47,318 nucleotides of DNA from Vulcanimicrobiales bacterium. Lineage in GTDB: Bacteria > Vulcanimicrobiota > Vulcanimicrobiia > Vulcanimicrobiales > Vulcanimicrobiaceae. Shown one piece after another: positions 1 through 18,241 of the stretch. Made by a program: the position numbers and the translations under genes. The stretch spans positions 1 through 47,318 of the forward strand of contig JBBRLI010000022.1 of the NCBI GenBank assembly GCA_038231455.1. Direction: 5' to 3'. Within the stretch, counting starts at the first letter, position 1. Each line of letters starts with the position of its first letter. The notes beneath the pieces were generated by a model. That model saw only the letters and a list, made by a program, of their open reading frames with translations, searched no databases and had not been told where the DNA came from.

Positions 1-119
1 GCGGCCTGCGTCACCGTCGCGGCCTGCCCGTGCGCGGTCAGCGTACGAAGACCAACGCGCGCACGCGCAAGGGTCCCAAGCGCACCGTCGCCGCCAAGAA
101 GAAGATCACCAAGAAGTAA
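1..119 (+). CDS. rpsM: 30S ribosomal protein S13, 3' end (partial)
   Basis: Frame from nt 3 reads [38 protein letters not shown], the conserved S13 C-terminus; TAA at 117-119. Not in the ORF track. Confidence 0.97.
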
Positions 120-174
120 TCTCTCCCGGACGGACGAGTTTCTTTGCCCCTGGCGCTTGCGCCGGGGGCTTTTT
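86..174 (+). repeat. rpsM 3'-end direct repeat, copy 1 (intact gene; attL-like)
   Basis: Core CGCCGC(C/G)AAGAAGAAGA is shared with 2447-2463 and 16772-16788; the downstream spacer and terminator are shared with 16791-16847. Confidence 0.85.
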
Positions 175-176
175 TT
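146..176 (+). terminator. Intrinsic terminator after rpsM
   Basis: GCCCCTGGCG-CTTG-CGCCGGGGGC stem-loop followed by a 7-T run. Confidence 0.9.
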
Positions 177-2360: not shown

Positions 2361-2446
2361 GTCAACACGAAGAGGCTCCGGGCTTCGGGCCAACCGAACG
2401 CCGACTGCTGATGATGAATCGTGTAGAGCCGCAGCGACGGCAATGC

Positions 2447-2472
2447 CGCCGCCAAGAAGAAGATCGCCAAGA
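2447..2472 (+). repeat. rpsM 3'-end direct repeat, copy 2
   Basis: CGCCGCCAAGAAGAAGATCGCCAAGA matches rpsM nt 89-114 at 25/26 positions; lies in the gap between convergent nifU and gntR. Confidence 0.85.
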
Positions 2473-2492
2473 TCTGGTTCGGACGGGACGAT

Positions 2493-3239
2493 TTATTCGA
2501 TTGGAGGTTCGTCCAGTCTCGTCGAATTTTCTCGGGTGAGGACGTTGGTCACAGCGACACGGGCCGCATCGAGTTGTTCTCGCATCTCATGTCCGGCCGC
2601 TTCTTCGTTGCCCGTCGCGATGGCGGCGACGATGGCGCGGGCGTGCTCGAGCGACGCTGCCATGCGGCCCTCATAGCGCATTGCGATGCGTCGCAGGCGC
2701 CGCACCGGGCCCGAGAGCGCTTCATACGAGCGGCGCAGCGTCGCATTGGCCGTGAGTTCCATGATCACGTCGTAGAAGCGGTCCAACTCGACGGTATAGC
2801 CGACGGTGTCGTTCGCAGCGACGTGCGGTTCGAGCGCGGTGAGGCGTTCTTCGAGCATCGCGCGGCCGACGCCGGTGAGGCGCCGCGCGACGATGCGGAC
2901 GGCCTGCACTTCGAGCGCTTCGCGCGTCTCGTAGATCTCGCCGACATCGTGCGCATCGATCGAACGAACGTAGACGCCGGCGCGCGCGACCGTCACGACC
3001 AGCCCCTCGCGTTCGAGTTGAGCGAAGGCCTCGCGGACCGGCGTGCGGCTCACGCCGAAGTGAGCGCCGATCTCGGCTTCCGCAAGCCGGCTGCCCGGTA
3101 GCAGGCGGCCCTCGACGATCGCTTCGCGCAGAGCCGGCACCACGCGGACATCGGAGAGCGACTCGTTCGAGGCGGGCGGCCGCGCGGACGACGGACGTAG
3201 GCGAGCGACCCCGCCCAGGCTGGAATTTTTCTTCGTCAT
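2493..3239 (-). CDS. GntR-family (FCD) transcriptional regulator
   Basis: wHTH motif LPGSRLAEAEIGAHFGVSRTPVREAF, C-terminal EH..I..AI FCD motif. The start could instead be 3269. Confidence 0.92.
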   Translation of the reverse strand: MTKKNSSLGGVARLRPSSARPPASNESLSDVRVVPALREAIVEGRLLPGSRLAEAEIGAHFGVSRTPVREAFAQLEREGLVVTVARAGVYVRSIDAHDVGEIYETREALEVQAVRIVARRLTGVGRAMLEERLTALEPHVAANDTVGYTVELDRFYDVIMELTANATLRRSYEALSGPVRRLRRIAMRYEGRMAASLEHARAIVAAIATGNEEAAGHEMREQLDAARVAVTNVLTRENSTRLDEPPIE

Positions 3240-3269
3240 GCTCCGCTTCGCGCAGGAATCCGCATCCAC

Positions 3270-3292
3270 ATACCCCGTATTTCGGGTATACT
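3270..3292. promoter_or_regulatory. Putative GntR operator / divergent promoter
   Basis: ATACCC-N8-GGGTAT inverted repeat (3270-3289) overlapping TATACT (3287-3292), between gntR and the crotonase gene. Confidence 0.45.
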
Positions 3293-4036
3293 GTGTCTAC
3301 AACCTCGCCGAACGGTTCCGCCCGCGTTCATGTCGATGGCGCCGCCGACGTCCTCACCGTCACGCTCGATTATCCCGAACGCGAGAACGAGATCTCCGTG
3401 GCAATGTTCGAGCGGCTGGTCGATTTGCTCGGGCGCGAAGCCGATAAGCCCAGCGCGAAAGTGCTCGTGCTGCGCGGCGCCGGCGCCGCCTTCTGCACCG
3501 GCCGGGAGCGCTCGGCGACCGATCTTGCTGGCATGCAGGCCGAAGCGAAGCGGATCATTGCGCTCAAGCGTGCCCTGCGCGCAACGCCGCTCATCACGGT
3601 TGCGCGCGTACACGGCGCGGCCGCAGGGTTTGGTATGGGCCTCGCGCTCCTGTGCGATTTCGCGATCGTCGCGGAGACGGCAACGCTGCAATTTCCGGAA
3701 ATGAAGATGGGCCTGCCGCCCGCCGCGATCATGGCATACCTCGGTGAGTTCGCCTTGCCGCGCCATGCGTTTCCGCTCGTGCTCTTCGGCGATCCGTTCA
3801 CGGCGCGACACGCCAAAGACATCGGCCTTATTTCCGATGTCGTGCCGATGGCCGAACTCGACGCGACGGTCGACGCGCTCGTCAAACGCATTTGCGCCAT
3901 CGGCGCCGCGAGCGCCCGCGCGTGCAAAGAACTCTTCCAAACGATGCAACAGCAATCGTTCGATGCCAACTGCCGGTTGGCCGCGGACGCGCTACCCTTG
4001 GCAAGCGCGACGCTCATTCGTCGCGCCGCACACTAG
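3293..4036 (+). CDS. Enoyl-CoA hydratase/isomerase (crotonase superfamily) protein
   Basis: VLVLRGAGAAFCTG, ARVHGAAAGFGMGLALLCDF, FPEMKMGL motifs. Confidence 0.88.
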   Translation: MSTTSPNGSARVHVDGAADVLTVTLDYPERENEISVAMFERLVDLLGREADKPSAKVLVLRGAGAAFCTGRERSATDLAGMQAEAKRIIALKRALRATPLITVARVHGAAAGFGMGLALLCDFAIVAETATLQFPEMKMGLPPAAIMAYLGEFALPRHAFPLVLFGDPFTARHAKDIGLISDVVPMAELDATVDALVKRICAIGAASARACKELFQTMQQQSFDANCRLAADALPLASATLIRRAAH

Positions 4037-4056
4037 ACCGCCCCGGAGGAACAGCC

Positions 4057-5445
4057 TTGGTTTCCGCACTTCGTACGACCGTCAACGCCGGCCCGCGGCT
4101 CGACCGTTTACCGACAACCGCCCTGCATCGCCGCGTGATGTGGCTGATCGGTATCGGGATGTTCTTCGACGGTTTCGACATCTACGTCGCGGCATCGGTT
4201 CTCGGCGCGCTGCTCAAGAGCGGCTTCTCGACCTTCCCGCTCAACAGCGTCTTCGTGCAGCTCACGTTCCTCGGAACGATGGTCGGCTCGATCGTCACCG
4301 GGTTCCTCGGCGATCGTTACGGCCGCCGCTTTACGTATCAAGCGAATCTCTTGATCTTCGGGCTCGCGGCAATCGCTTCGGCGTTCGTGCCTGATATGCT
4401 GTGGCTCATCGCGATGCGCTTCATCATGGGCATCGGACTCGGCGCCGAGAACGTCGTCGGCTACTCGACGATGACGGAATTCGCACCGGCGCGCGCGCGC
4501 GGCAAATGGCTCGCTACGGTCGCCGTGTTCGTGGTGAGCGGTCTGCCCGCTGCCGCACTGCTTGCGTCGTTCGTGATTCCGCACTACGGCTGGCGGCCGA
4601 TGTTCATCGTCGGCGGCGTCGGCGCACTCATCGTGTGGTATCTGCGCAAGCAGTTGCCGGAATCGCCGCGCTGGCTGGAATCCGTCGGCCGCTTCGATGA
4701 GGCCGACAAGATCGTCAAGACGTTCGAAGACTCCGCGCGCGAACTCGGTGCACTCCCGCCCGTTCCGGCCGCTGCTCCCGCACCGGCCAAAGTTGGCGTC
4801 GGCGCGCTCTTTCAAAAGCCGCTCTTGCCGCGTACCATCGTCGCGCTGGTTACGCTCTTCACGATCAATGCGTGGCTCTACGGTTTCATCACCTGGATTC
4901 CGCAGTTCTTCGTCAAAGAAGGCTTGAGTATCGCAACGTCGTTCTCGTTTGCGCTGACGATGGCTTTCGGTGCGCCGATCGGTGCCGCAATCGGCGCGTT
5001 CACCGCCGATGCGTGGGGCCGCAAGCCGACGATCGTCACGGCGTCGGTCGTGGCGATCGTCTTCGCGGCAATCTATCCGTTCGTTCACGATGCCGTCCTC
5101 TTACCGCTCGTTGGTTTCTGCCTGACCGTGCCGATCTACGTGCTGGTCGCCCTGCTGTTCGGCGTGTACATTCCGGAACTGTTCCCAACCGAAGTACGCT
5201 TGCGCGCATCCGGCATTACCAACATGTTCGGACGCGCTGCGGCCGTCGTCGTGCCACCGCTCGTCATCATCCTCTTCACGCGCAACGGTGTTGCCGGCGT
5301 GCTCGCCTTCATGATCGCGCTGACCGTCGTCCAAATCATCGTCGTTGCGACGCTCGGCATCGAGCCGAAGTCGCGTGGGCTCGAAGAGCTCGACGATGTC
5401 GCTCGCTCCGGTGCGGGCGTCAATGCGCAAACCGTAGGAGTCTAG
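4057..5445 (+). CDS. MFS transporter (aromatic acid/metabolite:H+ symporter-like)
   Basis: TTG 4057 after GGAGGA; FFDGFD, GDRYGRR motif A, PESPRW, ELFPTEVR; about 12 hydrophobic segments. Confidence 0.92.
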   Translation: MVSALRTTVNAGPRLDRLPTTALHRRVMWLIGIGMFFDGFDIYVAASVLGALLKSGFSTFPLNSVFVQLTFLGTMVGSIVTGFLGDRYGRRFTYQANLLIFGLAAIASAFVPDMLWLIAMRFIMGIGLGAENVVGYSTMTEFAPARARGKWLATVAVFVVSGLPAAALLASFVIPHYGWRPMFIVGGVGALIVWYLRKQLPESPRWLESVGRFDEADKIVKTFEDSARELGALPPVPAAAPAPAKVGVGALFQKPLLPRTIVALVTLFTINAWLYGFITWIPQFFVKEGLSIATSFSFALTMAFGAPIGAAIGAFTADAWGRKPTIVTASVVAIVFAAIYPFVHDAVLLPLVGFCLTVPIYVLVALLFGVYIPELFPTEVRLRASGITNMFGRAAAVVVPPLVIILFTRNGVAGVLAFMIALTVVQIIVVATLGIEPKSRGLEELDDVARSGAGVNAQTVGV

Positions 5446-5449
5446 CCGC

Positions 5450-6994
5450 ATGCTCGCCGCTCAACCCTTTCCTAAAACCAGTGTCTTGAACGGACCGAGC
5501 GGTCTGCTGCACGCACCGCTTTTCATCGACGGCGCGTGGTGCGAAGCCGCGGACGCTGCAACGCTTGAGACCGTCAATCCCGCCGACGGGACACGCCTCG
5601 GCACGCTCGCAGCCGCGAGCGCAGCCGATGTGGACCGCGCCGTGCGCGTCGCCGATGCCGCATTCGCGAGCGGCGTCTGGCGCGATGCCGGCAATCAGTA
5701 CCGTGCGCGCGTGCTCAATCGTTTCGCCGATCTCTTCGAGGCCGAACTCGAGACGTTTTACACGCTCGAAACGCGCAACAACGGGCGCCCGATCGTCGAA
5801 ACGCGCGCGCAGATCGGACGTCTTCCCTACTTCTATCGCTACTTCGCTTCGCTCGCACTGACGTACCGCGACTCCGTCATCCCGATCGAAGGCCCGTTCC
5901 TCCACTACACGCAGCGCGTGCCGCTCGGCGTTGCCGCGCTCATGCCGTCCTTCAACCATCCGCTGATGATTCTTTCGAAGAGTCTCGCGCCTGCGCTCGC
6001 GACAGGCAACAGCGTGGTCATCAAGCCCTCGGAACAGACGCCCTACACGACCGTCAGGCTGGTGGAATTGCTCACCGAAGCCGGCGTGCCCAAGGGCGTG
6101 CTCAATCTCGTCAACGGCACGGGTCCGGTCACGGGGGCGGCGCTTTCGCAACATCCCGATGTGCGCAAAATCGTGTTCACGGGCGGGACGGAAGTCGGCC
6201 GTCAAATCGGCATGGCCGCGGCCAAAAACTTCGCGATCTCAACCCTCGAACTTGGCGGCAAGGGCGCGGTCATCGTGTTCGATGATATGCCGCTCGAGCG
6301 TGCCGTAGCCGGTGCCACCTTCGCTGCATTTATCGGCGCGGGGCAAACCTGTGTGTGCGGCGCGCGCATTCTGGTGCAACGCACGATGTACGATAAATTC
6401 TGCGCTGCTTTCGCAGAAAAGGTGAAGCATATTCGCGTCGGCGATCCGAGCGACGAACGCACGCAACTCGGTCCCGTCATTTCGGAGCGTTCGCGTACGC
6501 GCATTCTCGGTATGCTCGATCGTGCCAAAGCCGCTGGCGCATCGCTGCTCGTCGGCGGTGGCATTCCCACCGGCGTCAACGCGAACGGCTTCTTTATCGA
6601 ACCGACGGCCGTATTCAACGTGACGCCGGAAATGGAGATCGCCCAAGACGAAGTCTTCGGCCCGGTCACCGTCGTCATGCCGTTCGAGGATGAAGCCGAC
6701 GCGCTGCGGATCGCGAACGGCACGAAGTTTGGTCTTGCCGCCTCACTTTGGACCAACGACGTCGCGCGCGCCCATCGTGTCGCCTCGAAGTTGATCTTCG
6801 GCATGGTCTGGATCAACGAGCATCACCGGCTCGACCCCGCATCGCCCTGGGGCGGCTTTAAAAACAGCGGTACCGGCCGCGAAACGGGGATCGAATCGTT
6901 TGATGCGTTCACCGAACCGCGCGCCGTCACGGTCAATACGACGGGCGTAACGCCGGACTGGTACGGAAGCGAAACGCCGAAACGCCTTAACTAG
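5450..6994 (+). CDS. NAD(P)-dependent aldehyde dehydrogenase
   Basis: KPSE, FTGGT, catalytic ELGGK and GQTC, EVFGP, PWGGFKNSG motifs. Confidence 0.95.
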   Translation: MLAAQPFPKTSVLNGPSGLLHAPLFIDGAWCEAADAATLETVNPADGTRLGTLAAASAADVDRAVRVADAAFASGVWRDAGNQYRARVLNRFADLFEAELETFYTLETRNNGRPIVETRAQIGRLPYFYRYFASLALTYRDSVIPIEGPFLHYTQRVPLGVAALMPSFNHPLMILSKSLAPALATGNSVVIKPSEQTPYTTVRLVELLTEAGVPKGVLNLVNGTGPVTGAALSQHPDVRKIVFTGGTEVGRQIGMAAAKNFAISTLELGGKGAVIVFDDMPLERAVAGATFAAFIGAGQTCVCGARILVQRTMYDKFCAAFAEKVKHIRVGDPSDERTQLGPVISERSRTRILGMLDRAKAAGASLLVGGGIPTGVNANGFFIEPTAVFNVTPEMEIAQDEVFGPVTVVMPFEDEADALRIANGTKFGLAASLWTNDVARAHRVASKLIFGMVWINEHHRLDPASPWGGFKNSGTGRETGIESFDAFTEPRAVTVNTTGVTPDWYGSETPKRLN

Positions 6995-7040
6995 GAGAGG
7001 TCGATCGCAGCGGGCTACTTGGTTTTGAATGTGCCTCCGG

Positions 7041-7054
7041 GTCGCTTCGGCGAC
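7041..7054. terminator. Small hairpin between convergent ALDH and cytochrome c genes
   Basis: GTCGC-TTCG-GCGAC (UUCG tetraloop); no clear U-tract. Confidence 0.35.
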
Positions 7055-7410
7055 TACATTTTTTGCACGAAGGCGGCGACGTCGTCGACGTCACGTTCGG
7101 AAAGCGGAACCGGGTAGAGTTTCGGCATCGGAGCCAGTGGGTGCTTGATCCACGCGATCGTCGCGTCGTAGTTCTTCCGGTTGTGCTCGCCGCGCAGCGA
7201 TGGCCCCACACCGCCTTCGAGGCCGTTGACGCCGTGGCAGACCGAACAATTGGCGGCAAAGACGACTTTTCCGCGATCCGCATTGCCGACCACCGCGACG
7301 CTCGAGTGGGGCGATGGCGACGCGTCGATCGTCGCCTTGCCGCTACCTCCGGCGCACGCCGCTAGCGCGGCAAGCGCCGCGAATGCAATGATGCCTCGCA
7401 CGCTACGCAT
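7054..7410 (-). CDS. Monoheme cytochrome c lipoprotein
   Basis: Signal peptide with lipobox LAAC, heme motif CSVCH, distal Met in APMP. Confidence 0.9.
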   Translation of the reverse strand: MRSVRGIIAFAALAALAACAGGSGKATIDASPSPHSSVAVVGNADRGKVVFAANCSVCHGVNGLEGGVGPSLRGEHNRKNYDATIAWIKHPLAPMPKLYPVPLSERDVDDVAAFVQKM

Positions 7411-8089
7411 GACCCGATCCTCGCGAAAAAGCAAACGCCGCAGCCGCCATCACACCGGCGGCGATCCATCCGAGGAAGCCCTCGGGGACGCTGCCGCTCG
7501 TGGGCATCGGCAGCACCGGCTGGGGTTCGGCGCGATGCGCCGCTACGTAGGCAACCAATGAATCGAGATCGCGCTCGCTGAGTTGAGCGGTTGAAAATTT
7601 TGGCATGTTGCCCGGACCGAGTCGCACGGCTTCGCCGACCTGCGTGACGCTGGCCCGGTTGAGCGACGGTGCCCAACTCTTGCCGCCGATCGATGCGCCC
7701 TCGGCATCGACCCCGTGACAATGCATGCAGTTCTCCCGAAAAAGTGTGCGGCCGCGCGCGGCGTCGCCGTTCGTGCCGACCGGAGGAATGGGCTCCCCGC
7801 CCGGCTGGACGGAGGTCACGTAGTCGACGATCGCGTCGATTTCGTTTTGCGGAAGTTGCGGCCCGCGATGGCCGACCTGCACCCACGGTACGGCAGCCGG
7901 CATGCGGCCGGTGCCGACCCAGAAGTCGACGTCTGCCGCGCCGACGCCGCGGATCGAGGGCGCGTTCGTCCCGCCACGCAAGTCGACGCCGTGGCACGAC
8001 GCGCACTCTGCTCGGTAGGCGGTCTGTCCGTCGCGGGGGGGCGGACTGCCCAGCGCGATTACCGTCGCGAGCATCAGCGCGGGCATCAT
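7403..8089 (-). CDS. qcrC: Diheme cytochrome c (cc) subunit of a bcc complex
   Basis: Two CXXCH motifs (CASCH, CMHCH), F.VGTGRMP and GP..MP.F motifs, C-terminal G.VPEG+TM helix as in actinobacterial QcrC. Confidence 0.85.
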   Translation of the reverse strand: MMPALMLATVIALGSPPPRDGQTAYRAECASCHGVDLRGGTNAPSIRGVGAADVDFWVGTGRMPAAVPWVQVGHRGPQLPQNEIDAIVDYVTSVQPGGEPIPPVGTNGDAARGRTLFRENCMHCHGVDAEGASIGGKSWAPSLNRASVTQVGEAVRLGPGNMPKFSTAQLSERDLDSLVAYVAAHRAEPQPVLPMPTSGSVPEGFLGWIAAGVMAAAAFAFSRGSGHA

Positions 8090-9837
8090 TATGCGAGTGG
8101 TCCTGGATTCTTGAACCAGCGGTTGATGAGCGCGTCGGCGGCGCGATACGCGAGCGCCCCCACGGTGCCGGTTGGATTGAAGCCCGCGTTCTGCGGAAAC
8201 GCCGACGCGCCGACGACGAACACGTTATCGAAATCCCACATCTGCAGCCATTTGTTCACGACCGAGGAGTGCGGGTCGCTGCCCATGATCGCGCCGCCGT
8301 TCACGTGCGTCGTCTGATATTTCGTCGTGTCGTAGTGCGGGTCGAGTTCGGTTGGCACGAGCATCTTGTTCGCGCCGCTCGCGCGCACGATCTCGTGCAC
8401 CTTTCCGCCGAGGTAACGCATCATCCGCCGGTCCTGTTCGGTAAAGTCGAACGTGAGACGCAGCAACGGCAGTCCGTAACTGTCGCGATAGGTAGGATCG
8501 AGCGTGAGGCAGTGATCCCAAGCGGCATTGCACTCACCCTGCATGACGATGTCGGCCTGTGCATCGTAGTAGCTCAGCAAGGCGTCCTTCCAAGCGGCCC
8601 CCCATTTCGGCGTCCCTTCGGGAACGCTGACCTGCTGGATCGGCCGCGCGCCGGTGTTCGCATAGATGATGGACGCGCCGCCCATAAAGCCGAGCCCGTG
8701 GTGATCGAAGTTGTCGGCGTTCAAGTCGTCGATCAGCGTGCCGTTTGCGCCCGAACCCATGAAGCGGCGCAAATGTTTTCCATCCCAGAACGAATGCGCC
8801 CCGAGAACGACTTGGTGGGTGAAGTTGCGTCCGACGACGCCCTCTCGCGTGCGCGGGTCGTATGGCCGCCCCATTTTCGAGAGCAGTAGCAACTTTGTGT
8901 TGTTGAAAGTGAACGCGTTGAGGAGAATCGCATGCGCGGGCTGTTCGTGCTGCTCGCCGCGGTCGTCGTAGTAGCGTACGGCGCGCGCACGTTTGCCGTC
9001 GTGCACGATTTCGTACACATTGGCACCATAGCGAATCTCGTAACGGCCGGTCGCCATCGCAACGGGAATGACGGTGACCGGTGCGGATGCTTTCGCGCCG
9101 ACCTCGCATCCGAAGCGTTCGCAGAACCCGCAATACGTGCACGCCGCGCGCGTGATGCCGTCCGGGTTCGTATACGCTGAGGGCAGATTTGCCGACGGCT
9201 GCGGGAATGGATGGTAGCCAACCTTCCGCGACGCCTCGGACATAATCGTCGCGCTCTCGGCTTCCTTCATCGGCGGCAACGGATACTCGCGTGAGCGTTC
9301 ACCCTCGAACGGATTCCCACCCGACTGCACGCCTTTACCTCTGAGGTTGCCGGCCTTGCCGGCGATGCCGCATAAGTATTCGAATTTGTCGTAGTACGGC
9401 TCCATCTCGTCGTACGTCACGCCCCAATCGGCGATCGAGAGATACTCCGGGATCGCATCCTTGCCGTAGCGCTGTTGCGTGTGCGAACGAATTTGAAAGT
9501 CGCGCGGATGGAAGCGGAACGTCTGTCCGTTCCAGTGGGTACCGGCGCCGCCGAGATTCGTACCGGGCAGGAACGAGCCGAGTTCGCGAAACGGTAGCGC
9601 GGTTTCGCGCAAATCGTGCCGCAACGTCCAGCTTTCGACCGCCGGATCTTGCATCAGGCTGTGGTCGACAGCGTATTCGAGTTCGTCGTGCGAATTCTGG
9701 AAGTTCTGCGTACCGCGCGCTTGCCCACGCTCGAGTCCGACGACGGTCTTACCCGCGCGCGTCAATTCGGCCGCCAGGATCCCGCCGGTCCAGCCGACGC
9801 CGACGGTGACCGCATCGACTTCCTTGTGAACGATCAT
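8089..9837 (-). CDS. GMC oxidoreductase, gluconate 2-dehydrogenase flavoprotein-like subunit
   Basis: VGVGWTGG FAD motif, GGAGTHW, CTYCGFCERFGC, YQTTHVNGGAIMG, QNAGFNPTGTVGALAY. Confidence 0.9.
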   Translation of the reverse strand: MIVHKEVDAVTVGVGWTGGILAAELTRAGKTVVGLERGQARGTQNFQNSHDELEYAVDHSLMQDPAVESWTLRHDLRETALPFRELGSFLPGTNLGGAGTHWNGQTFRFHPRDFQIRSHTQQRYGKDAIPEYLSIADWGVTYDEMEPYYDKFEYLCGIAGKAGNLRGKGVQSGGNPFEGERSREYPLPPMKEAESATIMSEASRKVGYHPFPQPSANLPSAYTNPDGITRAACTYCGFCERFGCEVGAKASAPVTVIPVAMATGRYEIRYGANVYEIVHDGKRARAVRYYDDRGEQHEQPAHAILLNAFTFNNTKLLLLSKMGRPYDPRTREGVVGRNFTHQVVLGAHSFWDGKHLRRFMGSGANGTLIDDLNADNFDHHGLGFMGGASIIYANTGARPIQQVSVPEGTPKWGAAWKDALLSYYDAQADIVMQGECNAAWDHCLTLDPTYRDSYGLPLLRLTFDFTEQDRRMMRYLGGKVHEIVRASGANKMLVPTELDPHYDTTKYQTTHVNGGAIMGSDPHSSVVNKWLQMWDFDNVFVVGASAFPQNAGFNPTGTVGALAYRAADALINRWFKNPGPLA

Positions 9838-10550
9838 TGGAGTCCTCGCGGTTTGACCGAGTAGGCGACATCGTAGCGATCGATCCACTTTTCGTACTGA
9901 TCGCCGTACGCCATCGGATCGCCGGGAAAGCCCAGTGCGACCCAGCCTTTCGCATCAGCGTTGCCGCCGTAACGCGGATCGGAAAACAGTCCCTGCTTCA
10001 CGTGTTCGAGAAAGATCGCGAAGAACGCCTTGCTCGTGAGAATCGTGAAGCCGTCGATCTTGCCGGCTTCGCAATCGCTCAAAACGCTGTCTTGCACGGT
10101 CGGGTCGAGTCCGGCAAACGTGGCGTGGTGGTTCGCTTGCGCGTACGCGTCGATCGCGGTGAGTGCGTCGCGGTACGCATCGCGCGGGGTGCGCGCGACC
10201 TGCCAACCGTGCCCGCTCGTCGATGCCTTTTGAAACGGCCCTTGCTTGTACATCCGCGCGCCCCAGCCGTAGGCGCCACCGAGGCGCCGATCGATGAACT
10301 CCGCGACGTGCAGATCGCGCGCGCCGGGCGCGCGCGCGTCGCTTGGGTAGATGCGCTCGGCCATCGCCTGCACCGCCGCGAATTCGCCGCGGGTGAGGAA
10401 CGAGAGCGCCGGCGGTTGCAGTTGCGCTTCGTTGCTTGGCTTGTCCGTGCCGTCGATCTGCTGCGCGCAACCGGCGATCGCTCCGGTCGCAGACACGCTC
10501 GCGGCCGTCGTCCAGCGCAGGAAAGAGAGACGTGATTTAGGATCCGGCAT
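9834..10550 (-). CDS. Gluconate 2-dehydrogenase subunit-3 family protein (putative Tat lipoprotein)
   Basis: RIYP.D..PGA.D..V..FID..L and GLFSDPRYGGN...GW..LGFPG motifs; N-terminus SRLSFL...IAGC; GGAG upstream of ATG 10550. Confidence 0.87.
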   Translation of the reverse strand: MPDPKSRLSFLRWTTAASVSATGAIAGCAQQIDGTDKPSNEAQLQPPALSFLTRGEFAAVQAMAERIYPSDARAPGARDLHVAEFIDRRLGGAYGWGARMYKQGPFQKASTSGHGWQVARTPRDAYRDALTAIDAYAQANHHATFAGLDPTVQDSVLSDCEAGKIDGFTILTSKAFFAIFLEHVKQGLFSDPRYGGNADAKGWVALGFPGDPMAYGDQYEKWIDRYDVAYSVKPRGLQ

Positions 10551-11304
10551 CGTAGATCGCTCCATATCGGCGTTCCCGTTCGGCCCAGTCGCCGACGAGC
10601 CACAGTAAGGCGACGAACAGCGGCGAACCACCGGCGAGCCACATGACGGCCCCGGCGTTGGCTTGATCGTGCAGTGCATTCGGATTACGGGCGTAGTGTG
10701 CGTAGAGTACGTACCCGCTCACGTACAAAACAAAGCCCAAGAACGCGCTCATCGGCAACGCGAGAAAGAGCGCGAGCAGGCGGACAGGATGCGATGGGGC
10801 GTGAGGCGCGGGTGCGACGCCGAGCAGCGGCATCCAAAAGAGCAGCGCAGACCCAAGATAGAGCAAATGCTCGAACGCGTGCACCGACTCGTTTTCGAGA
10901 GCGGCTTCGTAGAGCGGCGAGAAATGCGTGCCGTAAAGCACGAGCGCAAACTGCAGCCATGCGACCGCTGGGTGCGTCAAGAAGCGAAGGACGCCCGAGC
11001 CGAGCGCGCGCGCGACAGCGGTTGCCGCGCGCGGCGGCAGCGCGGCGAGCATGATGCGCGTCGGCGCACCGAGCAACATGAGCGGCGCGGAAACGCCGAC
11101 GAGGACGAGGTGCTGCAGCATGTGCCACGAGAGAGACGAGTCGGCGAATTCGTCGACGGGTCCGTAGAGGACCGCAGCGATCGAAACGAGGCCCGCAGCG
11201 AAGGCGATGGCCGCGCGCAACGGGGCGGCGCGGCCCGCGCGTAACGCGCGCGAACGGCCCCATACGTAGAGCGCGAGCGACCCGAGCAGCAGAACGGCAA
11301 TCAT
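10537..11304 (-). CDS. ctaG: Cytochrome c oxidase assembly factor, caa3-CtaG type
   Basis: HMLQHL...APLMLLG, HAFEH, DQANAG.VMW motifs; ATG 11304 overlaps the qcrB stop (ATGA). Confidence 0.9.
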   Translation of the reverse strand: MIAVLLLGSLALYVWGRSRALRAGRAAPLRAAIAFAAGLVSIAAVLYGPVDEFADSSLSWHMLQHLVLVGVSAPLMLLGAPTRIMLAALPPRAATAVARALGSGVLRFLTHPAVAWLQFALVLYGTHFSPLYEAALENESVHAFEHLLYLGSALLFWMPLLGVAPAPHAPSHPVRLLALFLALPMSAFLGFVLYVSGYVLYAHYARNPNALHDQANAGAVMWLAGGSPLFVALLWLVGDWAERERRYGAIYDAGS

Positions 11305-12623
11305 GAGGGCGTCACCGCCTCTTCGCGGTAGCCGCCCTCCGCGGTCCGTCGCAGTTGGACGACGCGTTCCGCCTCGATGCCGTGCCGTTCGCGCCGCAGA
11401 CGCAGTTCGCGGGCGATCTGCGCGGCGACGAAGCCGATCAGCACCGACCCGACCGGTACGGCGATTCGGTAGAACGTAACGAGTCCGGCGACCGAGACGT
11501 GCAGTGCAACAGCCTGTTGATCGTCGCTCGCCGCTAGCGTGAGAAAAAAGCCGGCGGCGATGAACGCGGTGCCGACGCCGACGCGCCATGGCGCGTGCGT
11601 TGCCGGAACCAGCACGTCGTGCAGGCGGTGGTCTCGGGTCAGCCAGGCGTCGATAAAGGGCCAACAATACAAGACGGCAAGAACGACGGTCGGCATAACG
11701 ATGCCGGGCCAAAAGACGGCCGGAATGGGATGCCCGGCGACCGTGATATGCCACGTCGGTCCAAGCCGCAGCGCGCCATCGAGAAAGGCCGCGTACCAGT
11801 CGGGAGTCGCCGGATTGGGCACCGTCCAATCGTGATACGGCCCGAAGCGCTCGATCGGGTTGATTTCGACCGTACCCGCAAGTGCGATGAGGACCCCAAC
11901 GCTGAACGCTAGCGCGGCGACGGTGCGTAGCGCATAGTCGGGCCAAAAGCGTCGACCGACGACATGCTCCGGATCGTCGACGAACTGCGTATGCTTTTGG
12001 AGCACGACCATGCCGAGATGAAGGGTCAGCAACACCGCGATCGTCACCGGCAAGAAATAGACATGGAACGTGTAGAGATGCGGCAGCAGATCGGGGCCCG
12101 GATAGCCTCCGCCGTTCAGCACGTCGGCGGCCCACCCGCCGATAAACGGAATGGAGCGTAGTACTGCATCGGTGATGCGTAAGCCCGTGCCGGCGAGCGC
12201 ATCGTCGGGCAGCGAGTAACCGGTGAAGCCGGTCAGCGAAGCGACGACGAGCATCGTCAAACCGACGATCCAATTGAGCTCGCGCGGCGCGCGGTACGCT
12301 GCGGTAAAGAAGATGCGCGCCATATGCAACAGGATCGCCGCGACGAACGTAACGGCGCTCCAGTGATGCACCTGACGCATCAGGTAGCCGACCGGATCGG
12401 CGCGCGAGAGCGACGCGACCGATGCGTACGCGCCCGCCGGCGTCGCGACGTATACGAACGTGAGCCAGATACCGGTCGCGACCAGCAGCAAAAACGCGTA
12501 GAGTGCGAACTCGCCTAAGTAGAACGACCAGTGGTCTGGAAAAACTTTTGTCATGACGAACCGTACGGCGGCGTTACTGCCGAAGCGCTCGTCGAAGAAG
12601 CGCGCGCCGCGCCGCGACATCAT
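11301..12623 (-). CDS. qcrB: Cytochrome b subunit of a bcc complex
   Basis: KVFPDHWSF.LGE, heme His pairs (RQVHHW...LHMAR; FHVY...LHL), PRELNW, Qo motif PDWY. Confidence 0.93.
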   Translation of the reverse strand: MMSRRGARFFDERFGSNAAVRFVMTKVFPDHWSFYLGEFALYAFLLLVATGIWLTFVYVATPAGAYASVASLSRADPVGYLMRQVHHWSAVTFVAAILLHMARIFFTAAYRAPRELNWIVGLTMLVVASLTGFTGYSLPDDALAGTGLRITDAVLRSIPFIGGWAADVLNGGGYPGPDLLPHLYTFHVYFLPVTIAVLLTLHLGMVVLQKHTQFVDDPEHVVGRRFWPDYALRTVAALAFSVGVLIALAGTVEINPIERFGPYHDWTVPNPATPDWYAAFLDGALRLGPTWHITVAGHPIPAVFWPGIVMPTVVLAVLYCWPFIDAWLTRDHRLHDVLVPATHAPWRVGVGTAFIAAGFFLTLAASDDQQAVALHVSVAGLVTFYRIAVPVGSVLIGFVAAQIARELRLRRERHGIEAERVVQLRRTAEGGYREEAVTPS

Positions 12624-13402
12624 ACGGTGCGCCGCCATTCATCCGGCCCGACGGGTGCGTCGAAATCCGAGCGAGCGATCAGGTAACCTTCACCGTCGAC
12701 GTCGAGCGCGAGTTGCGGAAGCGCGCGCGTCGCAGGCCCCGAGATCGGCCGCGCCGCGTCGAGTACGTCGAAGACCGATTGGTGGCACGGGCAATACAGC
12801 TGGTAATCTTGGTGCCGGTAGATCGCCACCGGACAGCCGGCGTGGGTGCAGATTTTCGAGTATGCGACGTTCCCGTGGGGCGTCCAGTCGGCGCGTTCCG
12901 GCGCCGCGCGAACCACGTCATCCTCAAGCCGCAGCAGCAAGGTTGCCGCTTCCGGCGCACCGACTCGCCCTTGCGGAAAGACCGTCTCGATCGCGCCCAC
13001 GCTGAGATCCGTCGGCCGCAGAGGTACGCCGTCGGCGGTGACCAGCCGAAGTCCGGCATTCCAAATGGGCCCGCGCCGGCCGCCGCGCCTGCCGAGCGCG
13101 ACAACCGGGACGATGCCCAGCACCGCCACCGCGCCGAGCGCGAACATCCACAACCGTCCGAAGACGGTGCGACGCGTCACGTCGCTTGGGAGTTCTGCGG
13201 GCGCCGTCGCCTGCGAGGTCTGGCGCGGCTCGCGCAGATCGCCCGGGGCCTTCAAACGACGAGCTTCGAGACCGGCCGCGACGGCGAATGCGAACGCCGT
13301 TGATGCGGCGAGCCACGCGACGAGCGCGGGCGACGCGTGCGACGAGGCGGCGACCGTAGCAGCAAGCGCGCCGACCAGCGCGAGCCAAAGCGCACGTCTC
13401 AT
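12620..13402 (-). CDS. qcrA: Rieske Fe-S subunit of a bcc complex
   Basis: CTHAGC and CPCHQS motifs, GPATRALPQL; internal TRRTVF Tat motif after N-terminal hydrophobic segments; ATG 13402 overlaps the ctaE stop. Confidence 0.92.
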   Translation of the reverse strand: MRRALWLALVGALAATVAASSHASPALVAWLAASTAFAFAVAAGLEARRLKAPGDLREPRQTSQATAPAELPSDVTRRTVFGRLWMFALGAVAVLGIVPVVALGRRGGRRGPIWNAGLRLVTADGVPLRPTDLSVGAIETVFPQGRVGAPEAATLLLRLEDDVVRAAPERADWTPHGNVAYSKICTHAGCPVAIYRHQDYQLYCPCHQSVFDVLDAARPISGPATRALPQLALDVDGEGYLIARSDFDAPVGPDEWRRTV

Positions 13403-13962
13403 CGAACGACGTAGACCGAGGCCCAAACCGCGAGCCAAACGACGAAGACGAAGTGCCAATAATACGCGATCGCCTCGACTCCGGCTTGACGCTCCGCGGT
13501 GAACGCCGGGCGACCGAGGAAGAGCGTCAGCGCCAGCAGCAGAACCGCGCCGACCAGCACGTGCGCCAGATGCGTGCCGGTGAGCACGTAAAAGAGCGTG
13601 CCGTAGGCATCGGTCGCGATTTGAAAGTTTACCTGGTGCCATTCGCGGAGCGCGATGTACGTGAAACCCAGCGCGCAGAATATGGTCAAGACGAGCATCG
13701 CGCGCGCCCGGCCGCGGTGCTTTTGAATCGCCGCGTTTTGGGCAAAGAGCATCATTATGCTTCCAAGCCCCAGCAGCGCGGTTCCGAAGGCTGCCCCGGC
13801 AGGATCCAATTGGGCTCCTAAGGGCGGCCAGTGCGCGCTTTGGCCGCGCAGGTCGTACCACGCCGCCAGCAGGCCGGCGAAGAGCATCGACTCTGAAGCC
13901 AGGAAGACCACAACGCCGAACACCAACGGGTGTGCTCGAACGGCCAGCGAGCGCATATGCAC
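13399..13962 (-). CDS. ctaE: Heme-copper oxidase subunit III
   Basis: FLASE.MLF, FYVLTGTH.AHV, YYWHFV..VW motifs. Start is 13962 (GTG) or 13956 (ATG). Confidence 0.92.
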   Translation of the reverse strand: MHMRSLAVRAHPLVFGVVVFLASESMLFAGLLAAWYDLRGQSAHWPPLGAQLDPAGAAFGTALLGLGSIMMLFAQNAAIQKHRGRARAMLVLTIFCALGFTYIALREWHQVNFQIATDAYGTLFYVLTGTHLAHVLVGAVLLLALTLFLGRPAFTAERQAGVEAIAYYWHFVFVVWLAVWASVYVVR

Positions 13963-14011
13963 AGCCGCGTACCCGCCGAACTCGGCGGCGAAACGGACGC
14001 GGCGCTAAACG

Positions 14012-14692
14012 ATGCGCGAGCAGACGTGGCCAGCTCTTGCGACCTCGCAATCGCATGCACTCGCCTCGAACTGGACGCTCTTCCTCATCGTCGGGTCGTG
14101 CGTAGCCGTGCTGGTATGGGGCTTGATCGTGTTCGCGCTCGTCCGCTACCGGCGCTCGGCGACGTCCGGCGCGCCGCCCCAATTCAGCAACAACTATCCG
14201 CTCGAAATCGCGTGGACCGCGATTCCGCTGGTCCTAGTCTGCGCGCTGTTCATCCACACCTATACGGTTGAATCGCGCGTCGACGCGGTCGTCGCCCGAC
14301 CCGACGTCATCGTTCACGTCAATGCGTATCGATGGGGCTGGCGGTTTGTGTACACCGGCGGGCCCACCGTCGGCGGTGCTGCGTCGAGTCCCATCGGCGG
14401 TAATCCGGTGAGCGCGAAACCCGAACTGGTGCTTCCGTTCGGCGAGACGACGCGAATCGAGCTTTCTTCCGACGATGTCACGCACTCGTTTTGGGTGCCG
14501 GACTTTCTTTTCAAGCGGGACGCGATTCCCGGCCAAACGAGTGGATTCGACCTTCAACCGACGCGCACGGGAACGTTCCTTGGCCGCTGCGCGCAGTTCT
14601 GCGGACTGAACCACGCGCTGATGCAGTTCACGGTTCGCGTCGTGCCGCCGGCGGAATTCCTGCGGTGGCGTAAGGAGATCGCTCTACGATGA
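14012..14692 (+). CDS. ctaC: Cytochrome c oxidase subunit II (CuA)
   Basis: Two TM helices (LEIAWTAIP), DVTHSFW, CuA motif CAQFCGLNHALM. Confidence 0.95.
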   Translation: MREQTWPALATSQSHALASNWTLFLIVGSCVAVLVWGLIVFALVRYRRSATSGAPPQFSNNYPLEIAWTAIPLVLVCALFIHTYTVESRVDAVVARPDVIVHVNAYRWGWRFVYTGGPTVGGAASSPIGGNPVSAKPELVLPFGETTRIELSSDDVTHSFWVPDFLFKRDAIPGQTSGFDLQPTRTGTFLGRCAQFCGLNHALMQFTVRVVPPAEFLRWRKEIALR

Positions 14693-16314
14693 CAGGCGAG
14701 ACCGCTCCAACGGGCACGACCACGGCGGCGCGCTCGGACTTGCTCAGCTGGATGACCACGACCGATCACAAGCGCATCGGCATTCTGTATCTGGTGACGA
14801 GCCTGGTGTATTTCGCGGTGGCCGGCGCGCTCTCGATCGTAATCCGTACGCAGCTCGCACGCCCCAACGCACACATCGTCGGTCCGCACGAGTACGCGCA
14901 GCTCTTCACCCTGCACGGTACCGCGATGATCTTTTTGTTCATCGCGCCGTTTGCGCTGGGGCTTGCAAATTTCTTGATCCCGCTGCAAATCGGGGCGCCC
15001 GATATGGCGTTCCCGCGTTTGAACGCAACCTCCTATTGGTTATTTTTCTTCGGCGGGCTGGTCGTTTTCGCGGGCGCCGGCACGAACGAAGGTGCCGCCG
15101 CTGCGGGCTGGACCAGCTACGCGCCACTTTCCGAGATCAAAGTCAGCACGGGCCTGGGACAGGACATGTGGATCGTCGGCGTCTTCCTCGTGTCGGTGGC
15201 GACGATTCTCACGGCGATCAATTTCATCACGACCGTCTTCATCTACCGTGCACCCGGCATGACGATGTGGCGCATCCCGATCTTCACCTGGGAGATGGTC
15301 GCGACGTCGCTGCTCGTGTTCCTGGCCTTTCCCTCGCTCGCCGCCGACCTGCTGCTGCTGTTCGTCGACCGGCATTTCGGCGGCCACGCCTTCGATCCGG
15401 CGCACGGCGGGAGCGCAGTGCTTTGGCAGCACCTCTTCTGGTTCTTCGGACACCCCGAAGTGTACGTCCTAATCTTGCCGTACTTCGGCGTTGTTAGCGA
15501 GATCTTGCCGGTGTTCTCGCGCAAGCCGATCTTCGGTTACACGGGTCTCGTGCTCTCTGCGTTTGCCATCGCCGGCCTCTCGATGGGTGTCTGGGCGCAC
15601 CACATGTTCACCACGGGATCCGTGAACAACCCGTTCTTCAGTTTCGTCTCGTTCCTGATCGCCGTGCCGACCGGCGTGAAGTTCTTCAACTGGATTGCAA
15701 CGATGTGGCGCGGTTCGATTTCGTTCGAAACGCCGATGCTCTTTACGATCGGCTTTCTGATGAACTTTCTCCTCGGCGGCGTTACCGGGGTGATGATCGC
15801 TTCGCCGCCGATCGACTATCAGGCGCACGACTCGTACTTCATCGTCGCGCACTTTCACTACGTTATTGGCGGCGGTAGCCTGTTTGCAATCTTCGCCGCG
15901 CTGTTTTTTTGGTGGCCAAAGTTTTTCGGGGTTAAACTCGATGAGGTGCTCGGGCGTTGGTGCTTTTGGCTGCTATTCATTGGCTTCAACGTGACGTTTT
16001 TGCCGATGCACTGGATGGGCATCGTCGGGATGCCGCGTCGCGTTTTCACCTACGCCGACGCAGGCGCGTTGCCAATTTTGAATCTCATCGCGACTGCGGG
16101 CTCGTACCTCATGGTGGTCGGTGTCGTCGCGTTCGTCGTTAACGTGATCGTCAGTGCGCGTCGGCACGAACCGGTGGGCGACGATCCATGGGGTGCGAAC
16201 TCGCTCGAGTGGGCGACTTCGTCGCCGCCGCCGGAGCATAACTTTACGCGACTGCCGCCGATCCGCAGCGAGCGGCCCGTGTACGACATGCGGCGCGCGA
16301 AGGGGGATGGATGA
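14689..16314 (+). CDS. ctaD: Cytochrome c oxidase subunit I, A1-type
   Basis: TTTDHKRIG, PDMAFPRLN (D-channel), FGHPEVY, WAHH, PTGVK (K-channel), VAHFHY. Confidence 0.98.
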   Translation: MTGETAPTGTTTAARSDLLSWMTTTDHKRIGILYLVTSLVYFAVAGALSIVIRTQLARPNAHIVGPHEYAQLFTLHGTAMIFLFIAPFALGLANFLIPLQIGAPDMAFPRLNATSYWLFFFGGLVVFAGAGTNEGAAAAGWTSYAPLSEIKVSTGLGQDMWIVGVFLVSVATILTAINFITTVFIYRAPGMTMWRIPIFTWEMVATSLLVFLAFPSLAADLLLLFVDRHFGGHAFDPAHGGSAVLWQHLFWFFGHPEVYVLILPYFGVVSEILPVFSRKPIFGYTGLVLSAFAIAGLSMGVWAHHMFTTGSVNNPFFSFVSFLIAVPTGVKFFNWIATMWRGSISFETPMLFTIGFLMNFLLGGVTGVMIASPPIDYQAHDSYFIVAHFHYVIGGGSLFAIFAALFFWWPKFFGVKLDEVLGRWCFWLLFIGFNVTFLPMHWMGIVGMPRRVFTYADAGALPILNLIATAGSYLMVVGVVAFVVNVIVSARRHEPVGDDPWGANSLEWATSSPPPEHNFTRLPPIRSERPVYDMRRAKGDG

Positions 16315-16688
16315 TCGTCGGTCGGCGGCTCTTCATCTCCTCGGCGACGTTCTCCGTCGCGATTGCCGCGGCATATTGGCTCACCTCGCGCGAGATCGCC
16401 GGGACGTTTCTGCTCGGCTTCATGGCGTTCGCGCTCTCGTTCGCAGCCGGCTATATGATCGTAGCCGAAAAGGACGCCGACCTCTGGGGCGACGATGGAA
16501 ACGCGACGATGGCCGATGCCGCCGACCAGGTCGTCGGTACGTACTCGATCCGCTCGCCACTGCCGTTCTGGTCGGCACTCTCGCTGACCGCCCTGGCACT
16601 TGGCCTCGTGATTTCGCCCGCGCTTGCGATCCTCGGCGGACTCGCCGCCCTCGTTCTTGGCGCTGCGTTCATCATGAACAGCCGCTAA
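16311..16688 (+). CDS. ctaF: Cytochrome c oxidase subunit IV (actinobacterial CtaF-like)
   Basis: Small hydrophobic protein with YW...E.AGT..L and an acidic loop followed by an S..PFW motif; directly follows subunit I. Confidence 0.75.
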   Translation: MIVGRRLFISSATFSVAIAAAYWLTSREIAGTFLLGFMAFALSFAAGYMIVAEKDADLWGDDGNATMADAADQVVGTYSIRSPLPFWSALSLTALALGLVISPALAILGGLAALVLGAAFIMNSR

Positions 16689-16768
16689 CAAGGGGGATGC
16701 CCGGCCGCGCGCAGTTGTGGATGTGCATCGCGACCACCAACGGTTGGCGCGCTTGGAATCCCGAGCTT

Positions 16769-16847
16769 CGTCGCCGCGAAGAAGAAGAGGTAATCTCTCC
16801 CAGACTGACGCGTTTCTTGCCCCTAGCGCCTTGCGCCGGGAGTTTTT
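16769..16847 (+). repeat. rpsM 3'-end direct repeat, copy 3, with decayed terminator (attR-like)
   Basis: Hand alignment to 86-174 gives about 70 of ~80 positions identical plus one 9-nt gap; reads VAAKKKR* then TAATCTCTCCC...GCCCCTAGCGCCTTGCGCCGGGAGTTTTT. Confidence 0.9.
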
Positions 16848-16860
16848 GTTGCCTTATGAT
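16831..16860 (+). promoter_or_regulatory. sigma70-type promoter for a leaderless transcript
   Basis: TTGCGC(16831-36)-N18-TATGAT(16855-60)-6 nt-ATG(16867); no Shine-Dalgarno. Confidence 0.5.
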
Positions 16861-16866
16861 GCGGGC

Positions 16867-17568
16867 ATGGGTGCTTTCTTCTTGGCCTTGTTTCTCGCCG
16901 GTGCGGACCCGACAGGCACGTGCGCGGATCCGAACGTTCCGACGCGCGCGATCAAGCTCGCGCCGCCGGACTCTCCCGGCGTCTACGGCACCGTCGACAT
17001 TCTTGTGAGACTCGACGCGGCATCGAACGTCACGAACGTCGAGGTTGAGAGGAGCGACGAGCCGCTGATGAACGCCTTCGTCGTTTCGGCCGCGAAGCGA
17101 AGCACGTTCGCGACGCAGATCGTAAACTGCGAGCCGGTGGCGTCCGTCTATCGACTGTCGTTGAGTATGGGCCGCGACCGACCGGCCGCCTCACCGCCCA
17201 AATCCGAGACCGATCCCTTCCAGTACCTTAGCGGATCCTGGACCTGCACCGACACTCACAACGGCAATGTGTCCGCCGAAGTTTTTACGCCCGATCCCGC
17301 ATCGTCAACGATCGCGCACGGAATCGGCAGCCGCACTGAGACGTTCGCAAACGTCTTGGGCGTGTGGCATCTTCGCAATGCAGACGGCACAATCGATGAG
17401 ACCGCGCGGTCGTGGGCTCGGCATTGGTTCTTCCAAGGAACGGTCGCCGGAAAACCAGCCGCAACGTCCTATAGCCGCATCAATCCGAATTCGTTCGTGC
17501 GAAGTACTGACGACCCGAGCACGGCCTACGGAACGTACAGACTAGAGACGTGCACACGGGCGAAATAG
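16867..17568 (+). CDS. Exported protein with TonB C-terminal-like domain plus an unknown C-terminal domain
   Basis: Short hydrophobic N-terminus, GTVDILVRLDAASNVTNVEVERS...LMNAFVVSAAKRSTF pattern; second domain begins FQYLSGSWTC. Confidence 0.6.
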   Translation: MGAFFLALFLAGADPTGTCADPNVPTRAIKLAPPDSPGVYGTVDILVRLDAASNVTNVEVERSDEPLMNAFVVSAAKRSTFATQIVNCEPVASVYRLSLSMGRDRPAASPPKSETDPFQYLSGSWTCTDTHNGNVSAEVFTPDPASSTIAHGIGSRTETFANVLGVWHLRNADGTIDETARSWARHWFFQGTVAGKPAATSYSRINPNSFVRSTDDPSTAYGTYRLETCTRAK

Positions 17569-17721
17569 CCGCCTGCACATCTCGCCTACCGTTTATTGTC
17601 TTTTCGTAAATCGGCTGCATTCGCGAAACCGCCGGCCATGTTGAAGCGCTTATCGCCAATCGCGGAATGTCGTCGTCATCGAAAACGTGGAGCGATTCGG
17701 GCGGACGGGGCCGAATGAGGA

Positions 17722-18165
17722 ATGATGAACGAACACGATTTTGCGGGCTTCGATCACATCGACTTGCGCGTGCACGATCTTGCGGCTGCCCGGCCGCTCT
17801 ACGACGCGCTGCTTCCGGCGCTGGGTCTTACGGACATCCACGAGACCGACGGCGCCATTGAATACTACGAGCCCCGGCGCATCGACGCGCCGACGCGCTT
17901 CTTTGGCTTGAATGCGTCTCCTGGTCACCGCGGCGACGCTTCCCGTCTTGCGCTTACGGCGCGGTCTGCTGCGGATGTCGATCGACTGGCTTCGATCGCC
18001 ACAGCGGCGGGTGCGAAGCAGCTCGAGGGTCCGGAGATACCGTATTCCTTGGAGCAATATTATGCAGCGTTCTTCGAGGATGCAAGCGGGAACAAGCTCG
18101 AAATTTGTTATCGCCGTCGCCACCAAGACGCAGTCGAGGACGACGTGGCAATGAACGGCGATTAG
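17722..18165 (+). CDS. VOC/glyoxalase family protein
   Basis: FDHIDLRVHDL...YYAAFFEDASGNKLEIC. Confidence 0.9.
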   Translation: MMNEHDFAGFDHIDLRVHDLAAARPLYDALLPALGLTDIHETDGAIEYYEPRRIDAPTRFFGLNASPGHRGDASRLALTARSAADVDRLASIATAAGAKQLEGPEIPYSLEQYYAAFFEDASGNKLEICYRRRHQDAVEDDVAMNGD

Positions 18166-18174
18166 CCGCGCGGG

Positions 18175-18215
18175 AAACGAAAAAGACGCTCCCGCGAGGA
18201 AGCGTCGTTTTCGGT
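18175..18215. terminator. Bidirectional terminator between VOC and fasciclin genes
   Basis: AAAAA-GACGCTCC-CGCGA-GGAAGCGTC-GTTTT imperfect stem flanked by A and T runs. Confidence 0.6.
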
Positions 18216-18241
18216 TCAACGTCGAAGAGCGACGCCGATGA

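Follow-up and report, generated by a model that had tools for sequence, protein, structure and literature searches.

Why do the genes of a putatively periplasmic dehydrogenase lie inside an operon for respiratory complexes III and IV, and where would the electrons of such an enzyme go? The question is raised by a 47,318-nucleotide (nt) stretch of DNA (the whole of which we call the window) whose host belongs to the Eremiobacterota, and in which the two genes of a GMC-family dehydrogenase sit within an actinobacterial-type bcc-aa3 gene cluster. Direct observation covers the gene content, the integrity of the cofactor motifs, the overlaps between reading frames, the recurrence of the arrangement and its exchange with pyrroloquinoline quinone (PQQ) dehydrogenase modules. 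In what we consider the best explanation, to which we give a probability of about 0.45, an accessory Eremiobacterota bcc-aa3 cluster has captured a two-subunit periplasmic dehydrogenase, the electrons of which would leave via a monoheme cytochrome c lipoprotein by transient contact. Below, G numbers denote genomes (G000 being that of the window), L numbers loci and C numbers contigs of G000.

An accessory bcc-aa3 cluster with a dehydrogenase pair

Eight genes on the minus strand, in the order ctaE-qcrA-qcrB-ctaG-[subunit 3]-[GMC flavoprotein]-qcrC-[monoheme lipoprotein], diverge from ctaC-ctaD-ctaF on the plus strand (Table 1). All 11 open reading frames (ORFs) are intact and stand in the order given by the first-pass annotation, which had described GMC genes within an actinobacterial-type cluster with overlapping or abutting starts and stops. 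The eight minus-strand genes overlap at each junction, as do ctaC, ctaD and ctaF: the overlap is ATGA at ctaE/qcrA, qcrA/qcrB, qcrB/ctaG and subunit 3/GMC, 14 nt at ctaG/subunit 3, TAATG at GMC/qcrC and 8 nt at qcrC/lipoprotein (with refined starts at 9837 for the flavoprotein, 10550 for subunit 3 and 7410 for the lipoprotein). Pfam assigned the minus-strand ORFs to COX3, Rieske, Cytochrom_B_N_2, Caa3_CtaG, Gluconate_2-dh3, GMC_oxred_C and two cytochrome c proteins (two and one CxxCH motifs, respectively), and the plus-strand ORFs to COX2, COX1 and Cyt_c_ox_IV. Contigs from three sequencing runs other than the possible source run, representing a related population a few per cent divergent, span cytochrome-qcrC-GMC, GMC-subunit 3-ctaG and subunit 3-ctaG-qcrB. 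Because these independent contigs cross the junctions of the GMC pair, the layout is not an assembly chimera. The divergent starts of ctaE and ctaC are only ~50 nt apart (13957-14011), as in many relatives, which leaves little space for two promoters. A scan returned no promoter-like site and nine terminator-like sites (9.7 expected by chance); a candidate terminator lies 3' of the lipoprotein gene, at 7040-7055.

Every Qcr and Cta subunit searched found its best match in actinobacterial bcc-aa3, and the best solved relatives of QcrA, QcrB, QcrC and CtaD are actinobacterial supercomplex subunits. Actinobacterial NCBIfam models were the top match for six subunits, all below cut-off (QcrB 401 against 500, QcrC 170 against 200, CtaD 766 against 880). 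Cofactor motifs are complete in QcrA, QcrB, QcrC, CtaC and CtaD. CtaC (226 residues) has no CxxCH; because it lacks a heme c domain, QcrC would be the wire to CuA. LpqE, SodC and AscF/G are absent from the cluster ORFs (the rest of the genome was not searched for them). A check for a separate housekeeping complex III/IV, suggested at first pass, found one: two Rieske genes and a cytochrome b-c fusion lie on C4 and a caa3 oxidase on C37, with another divergent oxidase on C32 and several monoheme cytochromes elsewhere in G000. Since the genome has a separate complex III and a caa3 oxidase, the bcc-aa3 cluster is accessory.

The model of the flavoprotein (predicted local distance difference test 90.6) has the large subunits of fructose and flavin adenine dinucleotide (FAD)-dependent glucose dehydrogenases as its nearest folds. 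C233, C236, C239, C244, H511 and N554 are invariant across 65 sequences, and three of the four clustered cysteines align with the cysteine cluster of fructose dehydrogenase. We take the four cysteines to be an iron–sulfur (Fe-S) relay and H511/N554 to be the active-site pair. The protein is 48-54% identical to unnamed proteobacterial flavoproteins, and its family suggests gluconate or a related sugar acid as substrate. Mature subunit 3 has no transmembrane (TM) helix. Its leader holds one arginine in the window, RR in the orthologues L031 and L142 and RK or KR in many relatives; by alignment, the lipoprotein cysteine is common to the window, L031, L142 and L143.

No triheme cytochrome gene, the usual third partner of such pairs in Proteobacteria, is present in the cluster. 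Five proteobacterial triheme queries returned only single-domain matches in G000 (93.7% complete), so that no cognate subunit was found elsewhere in the genome either, and one query found none in G032, G235 or G001. The first-pass annotation was right about this absence and made it appear odder than it is. A triheme gene adjoins the GMC gene in 61 of 71 mostly proteobacterial homologous loci; it is missing from all eight loci L043-L050 and from the Thermus and Halorussus plasmid copies, and in a Deinococcus copy tatA and a small cytochrome c come next. Outside Proteobacteria, two-subunit forms occur widely, and the absence is not unusual (Campylobacter, Thermus, Deinococcus). For the two-component gluconate dehydrogenase of C. 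jejuni, a review passage gives electron transfer to periplasmic cytochrome c as predicted (PMC4178425).

The ctaG/qcrC junction across the phylum

The linkage is not peculiar to this genome. Two further clusters carry the GMC pair in the identical ctaG/qcrC junction, L031 (in G032, of another family) and L262 (same order, from a metagenome scan), and GMC and qcrC overlap in all three. Window-type QcrB occurs in 152 of 401 phylum genomes (~38%) and a close GMC flavoprotein in 22 of 401; both figures count a few unpublished genomes (nine are flagged for QcrB, and G243 for GMC). Of ~158 matches, we read 133 qcrB loci including the window, leaving out unpublished genomes and some short contigs and counting L042 once with L031, which has the same matches. 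Among these, 25 have an in-operon PQQ dehydrogenase with a cytochrome c, 2 the GMC pair and 86 neither, and 20 are too short to tell. The closest relatives of the window's cluster are among those with a PQQ enzyme. The PQQ enzyme comes with its own cytochrome c in 25 of 25, following qcrC in 12 and ctaG in 13 (L140 matches only in part). Four of five PQQ proteins tested pass TIGR03075, a family that reduces cytochrome c; no homologue of the query PQQ dehydrogenase was found in G000. ctaG abuts qcrC in 73 loci, and in 8 the junction holds a 2.5 kb insert, consisting of the GMC pair in 2 and of cytochrome c, PQQ dehydrogenase and lipoprotein genes in 6; for junction insertions of 0.6-4 kb, the cargo is a periplasmic dehydrogenase in 8 of 8. 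Thus the ctaG/qcrC region is a swappable slot for periplasmic dehydrogenases, filled far more often by PQQ enzymes than by GMC. The PQQ occupancy was missed at first pass, and the feature is wider than GMC alone.

Some clusters depart from this pattern. L175, L238, L239, L244 and L248 have qcrA, qcrB and cta genes and no diheme qcrC in the stretch read; in L175 and L239 a monoheme cytochrome and a PQQ dehydrogenase follow ctaG in its place. In four loci, the called ORFs join ctaG to another gene: to cytochrome c (L167, L228), to cytochrome c and PQQ dehydrogenase (L231) or to qcrC (L160). These fusions could be real or sequence errors.

The flavoproteins of the window, L031, L262 and L142 form one four-member clade (Shimodaira–Hasegawa-like approximate likelihood ratio test 98), with no members beyond G000, G235 and G032 among 348 genomes of the window's own family and 32 of G032's, and with one in 67, mostly short, metagenome loci. 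In the QcrB+CtaD tree, by contrast with this single clade, the window falls within a group of clusters that are PQQ-carrying or empty (L141, L123, L122 and L126 being nearest), L262 is sister to that whole group and L031 lies elsewhere. A single clade of the three GMC clusters is rejected by the approximately unbiased (AU) test for QcrB+CtaD (p-AU 7.5e-12, 41 rows) and for QcrC (p-AU 0.0023). Flavoprotein and CtaD identities track each other across the three pairs (79/78, 68/71 and 70/72%), and four-fold sites are saturated among the three clusters (31-60%). With respiratory genes that are not one clade, GMC genes that are and silent sites that are saturated, the link between GMC pair and cluster is old and has been kept or remade. 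Saturation also led us to reject recent lateral transfer of the pair among the three clusters. Two histories fit: long residence of the pair in the slot, with frequent loss or replacement by a PQQ enzyme, or more than one capture in the distant past.

This history bears on the stable assembly envisaged at first pass, in which a lipid-anchored dehydrogenase would sit on the QcrC head as part of a dehydrogenase-III2IV2 supercomplex, passing electrons directly to the QcrC heme. The overlap of the GMC stop with the qcrC start in all three clusters speaks for it, as does the lipid anchor that the motif of subunit 3 indicates, and precedents exist: excerpts of one report place SodC near the QcrC head and propose electron transfer (PMC8361435), and another describes Mqo bound to the M. 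smegmatis supercomplex via AscF (PMC13456599). However, QcrC follows the QcrB tree and not that of GMC, by which we rejected the idea that it travels with GMC. The three GMC-linked QcrC proteins have no evident common feature in the 10 aligned rows inspected, unrelated folds (GMC and the PQQ propeller) exchange in the slot, and in L142 a member of this GMC clade occurs with no qcrC. We regard such an assembly as distinctly unlikely. A broader view would make bcc-aa3 a modular socket, into whose QcrC head interchangeable membrane-anchored periplasmic dehydrogenases (PQQ alcohol-type or FAD/Fe-S GMC-type) might plug directly or via a dedicated lipoprotein, giving a second entry that bypasses the Q-cycle; we hold this to be possible, if on balance doubtful.

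Route of the electrons

In the transient-contact reading that we prefer, subunit 3 would be exported by the twin-arginine translocation (Tat) system and lipid-anchored, carrying the signal-less flavoprotein along. FAD would oxidise gluconate or a related sugar acid, and electrons would pass through the cysteine-bound Fe-S cluster to the monoheme lipoprotein, standing in for the triheme subunit. The lipoprotein could then reduce QcrC or the CuA site of CtaC by transient contact, and the co-encoded aa3 oxidase would deliver the electrons to O2. Entry at this point would bypass the quinol site, with QcrAB still feeding the same oxidase from quinol.

The lipoprotein gene is present at all four loci of the GMC clade (window, L031, L262 and L142). 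At L142, which has no qcr genes nearby, it is found 16 nt upstream of subunit 3, and at L148 it follows a more distant GMC gene. Among the clusters read, it occurs in 18 of 27 that bear a dehydrogenase against 18 of 86 others.

Several observations weigh against our reading. A phylogeny-aware test of the association between lipoprotein and dehydrogenase gave ~5 independent pairs with it and 0 against (median p 0.06), which is not significant, and three more lipoprotein-like paralogues are encoded elsewhere in G000. For the third domain of the triheme subunit, the heme c domain of the housekeeping b-c fusion is a better match (E to 8e-12) than QcrC (E 1e-4), and the lipoprotein gives no match. 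The substrate rests on family names, in a comparison set that holds no characterised gluconate dehydrogenase, and only 2 of the 5 genomes with a PQQ cluster that were tested yielded PqqC. In addition, the close GMC and this qcrB lie apart or on separate contigs in 8 of the 10 published genomes that have both.

The last of these favours co-regulation or hitch-hiking alone: the pair would be transcribed from the promoter of an accessory (and perhaps stress-induced) oxidase cluster and pass electrons to any periplasmic cytochrome, including the housekeeping b-c fusion and caa3. A gene for a thiamine diphosphate (ThDP)-dependent enzyme near 32 of the 133 clusters, often with enolase-family and FAD-oxidase genes, likewise points to a common regulon neighbourhood. 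Of 50 proteobacterial loci of at least 15 kb, 12 have the triheme-bearing trio no more than 10 kb from genes of alternative complex III (8) or aa3 oxidase (4), a count for which no background rate was computed; there, the triheme subunit makes a substitute acceptor needless. What co-regulation explains less well is the identical junction with GMC/qcrC overlap in three divergent clusters, the lipoprotein that goes with the GMC clade even where qcr genes are absent (L142) and a junction cargo that is always a periplasmic dehydrogenase; we consider it unlikely. The recurrence of the enzyme family near accessory III-IV clusters fits functional coupling and also plain co-regulation.

The proteobacterial loci with a gluconate-dehydrogenase-like trio beside alternative complex III are L069, L070, L076, L088, L090, L092, L108 and L116; in L069, L076 and L088 the trio is directly upstream on the same strand. 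These eight homologous loci would also suit entry at the level of quinone, with the pair reducing membrane quinone and the co-encoded bcc-aa3 oxidising the quinol, so that contact with a cytochrome would be needless. Such entry would explain why complex III genes, and not oxidase genes alone, surround the pair. However, neither the flavoprotein nor mature subunit 3 has a TM helix, the membrane triheme subunit is missing, and each PQQ enzyme of the slot has a cytochrome c. We give this route little credence.

Genomic setting and known systems

The cluster lies in a 27 kb gap between rpsM and rpsK (120-27140), shared in part with the congener G001. It had been called a self-contained module carried between rpsM repeats, and neither part of that description was supported. 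Genes for heme A/O synthesis and cytochrome c maturation are missing from the cluster ORFs (Pfam). The region is absent from G001, yet no integrase was seen among the ORFs scanned (1-18664), the block is composite and the rpsM copy occurs in the window alone among 133 qcr loci and 67 metagenome loci. In contigs of the three runs, 2346 is joined to 7050, without the gntR block, and 177 to 2501; as this block is separable in the related population, we rejected its genes as the module's substrate pathway. The rpsM region is a local insertion hotspot inside a ribosomal operon, probably not a self-contained mobile element, and the stretch 2392-17690 reflects either gain in the window's lineage or loss in the congener. 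An ORF after the rpsM copy (16867-17568) has no Pfam family and two weak paralogues in the genome, and 24549-25139 encodes an ice-binding-like protein (PF11999, E 3.5e-53).

Table 1 Features of the window, with positions and strand
Feature	Positions	Strand	Basis or remark
Monoheme class I cytochrome c lipoprotein, candidate electron acceptor	7054..7410	-	LAAC, CSVCH, PMP
qcrC, diheme cytochrome c, C-terminal TM helix	7403..8089	-	Best matches mycobacterial and corynebacterial QcrC, E ~1e-30
GMC flavoprotein, 582 residues, no signal peptide or TM helix	8089..9837	-	Invariant H101, C233/C236/C239/C244, H511, N554
Gluconate 2-dehydrogenase subunit 3 family protein	9834..10550	-	Pfam PF13618; Tat-like signal with single Arg (KSRLSFL) and lipobox (IAGC), by motif
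ctaG, Caa3_CtaG assembly factor	10537..11304	-	Pfam PF09678, E 1.8e-62
qcrB, cytochrome b	11301..12623	-	Histidine motifs; PDWY quinol-site motif
qcrA, Rieske protein	12620..13402	-	CTHAGC and CPCHQSVF intact; shorter than actinobacterial QcrA
ctaE, oxidase subunit III, actinobacterial type	13399..13956	-	Pfam COX3; best NCBIfam aa3_CtaE_Actin, under cut-off
ctaC, subunit II, CuA motif, no heme c domain	14012..14692	+	Pfam and NCBIfam matches; motifs
ctaD, subunit I, A1-type GHPEVY, histidine ligands present	14689..16314	+	Family matches; motifs
ctaF, subunit IV	16311..16688	+	Pfam PF12270
rpsM 3' end and terminator	1..176	+	Gene continues on contig C40
Short degenerate copy of rpsM 3' end, left edge of gntR block	2440..2472	+	33 nt, 88%
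gntR, enoyl-CoA hydratase, major facilitator superfamily and aldehyde dehydrogenase block; separate insert, outside module	2493..6994		ORF families; contig joins
Degenerate copy of rpsM 3' end and terminator	16769..16850	+	78%
Stretch missing at this site in congener G001 (92% complete)	2392..17690		Comparison with one congener

The closest named relatives of the GMC flavoprotein are in Candidatus Eremiobacteraeota genomes. The host is probably a phototroph, as indicated by puf-like photosynthetic reaction centre genes with a tetraheme cytochrome (C8:67609-70880, read by eye); this tetraheme was considered as the missing dehydrogenase subunit and rejected, since it sits in the puf-like operon. 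On C1 (35177-37726; L039:2178-4727), a ThDP-dependent enzyme of 643 residues with a twin-arginine-type leader precedes a diheme cytochrome c with a C-terminal domain ~60% like the lipoprotein of the window, and the two look like another exported enzyme–cytochrome pair. A second, distant GMC and subunit 3 pair (29%) lies beside ThDP and enolase-family genes (C47:4107-6610; L040), and a pair 80% identical to it lies ~2 kb from the qcr cluster of L160.

Each component is already known in kind. In open-licence literature (supplements excluded), we found no paper on Eremiobacterota bcc-aa3 clusters or on dehydrogenase genes within a qcr-cta operon. The cluster shares with the actinobacterial III2IV2 supercomplex (M. 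smegmatis, C. glutamicum) a diheme QcrC, a CtaC without heme c and split CtaE/CtaF. It differs in its phylum, in coexisting, as an accessory system, with a separate complex III and caa3, in having qcrC after ctaG and in its shorter QcrA and QcrB; it also encodes a free monoheme lipoprotein, with dehydrogenase genes inside the operon, whereas actinobacteria are described, in excerpts of PMC8361435, as having no small c cytochromes. The three-subunit FAD dehydrogenases (the gluconate 2-dehydrogenase family, fructose dehydrogenase 7W2J/8JEJ and B. cepacia FAD-glucose dehydrogenase 6A2U) have the same GMC fold (TM-score 0.72-0.77), a cysteine cluster and a small Tat subunit; in the window there is no triheme subunit, subunit 3 has a lipobox and the substrate is suggested by family. 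The C. jejuni enzyme (Cj0414/Cj0415), likened by description and not by sequence, also has two subunits, is periplasmic and is predicted to reduce cytochrome c, but the review's passage on it mentions no link to a III-IV operon (PMC4178425). Alphaproteobacterial COX operon type a-II likewise contains PQQ (periplasmic) dehydrogenase genes inside an aa3 oxidase operon; its oxidase is proteobacterial, its enzyme PQQ and not GMC, and the available part of its description mentions no bcc complex (PMC4013037). Mqo/AscF and SodC on the M. smegmatis supercomplex are also extra redox enzymes that feed bcc-aa3. From what those excerpts say, however, Mqo needs an adapter subunit and SodC is a dismutase, and neither is a swappable, operon-encoded periplasmic dehydrogenase.

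The actinobacterial supercomplex has been regarded as a closed wire between quinol and oxygen, and the excerpted account of SodC proposes entry of an outside donor at QcrC and leaves it open (PMC8361435). The natural clusters described here place a defined periplasmic donor and a candidate shuttle in one operon, with two interchangeable classes of enzyme, which makes the question of entry at QcrC testable with purified parts. They do so in an abundant, mostly uncultured and little-studied phylum, in which bcc-aa3 is present in ~38% of sampled genomes. The slot suggests that these cells may feed electrons from oxidation outside the membrane straight into an accessory respiratory chain.

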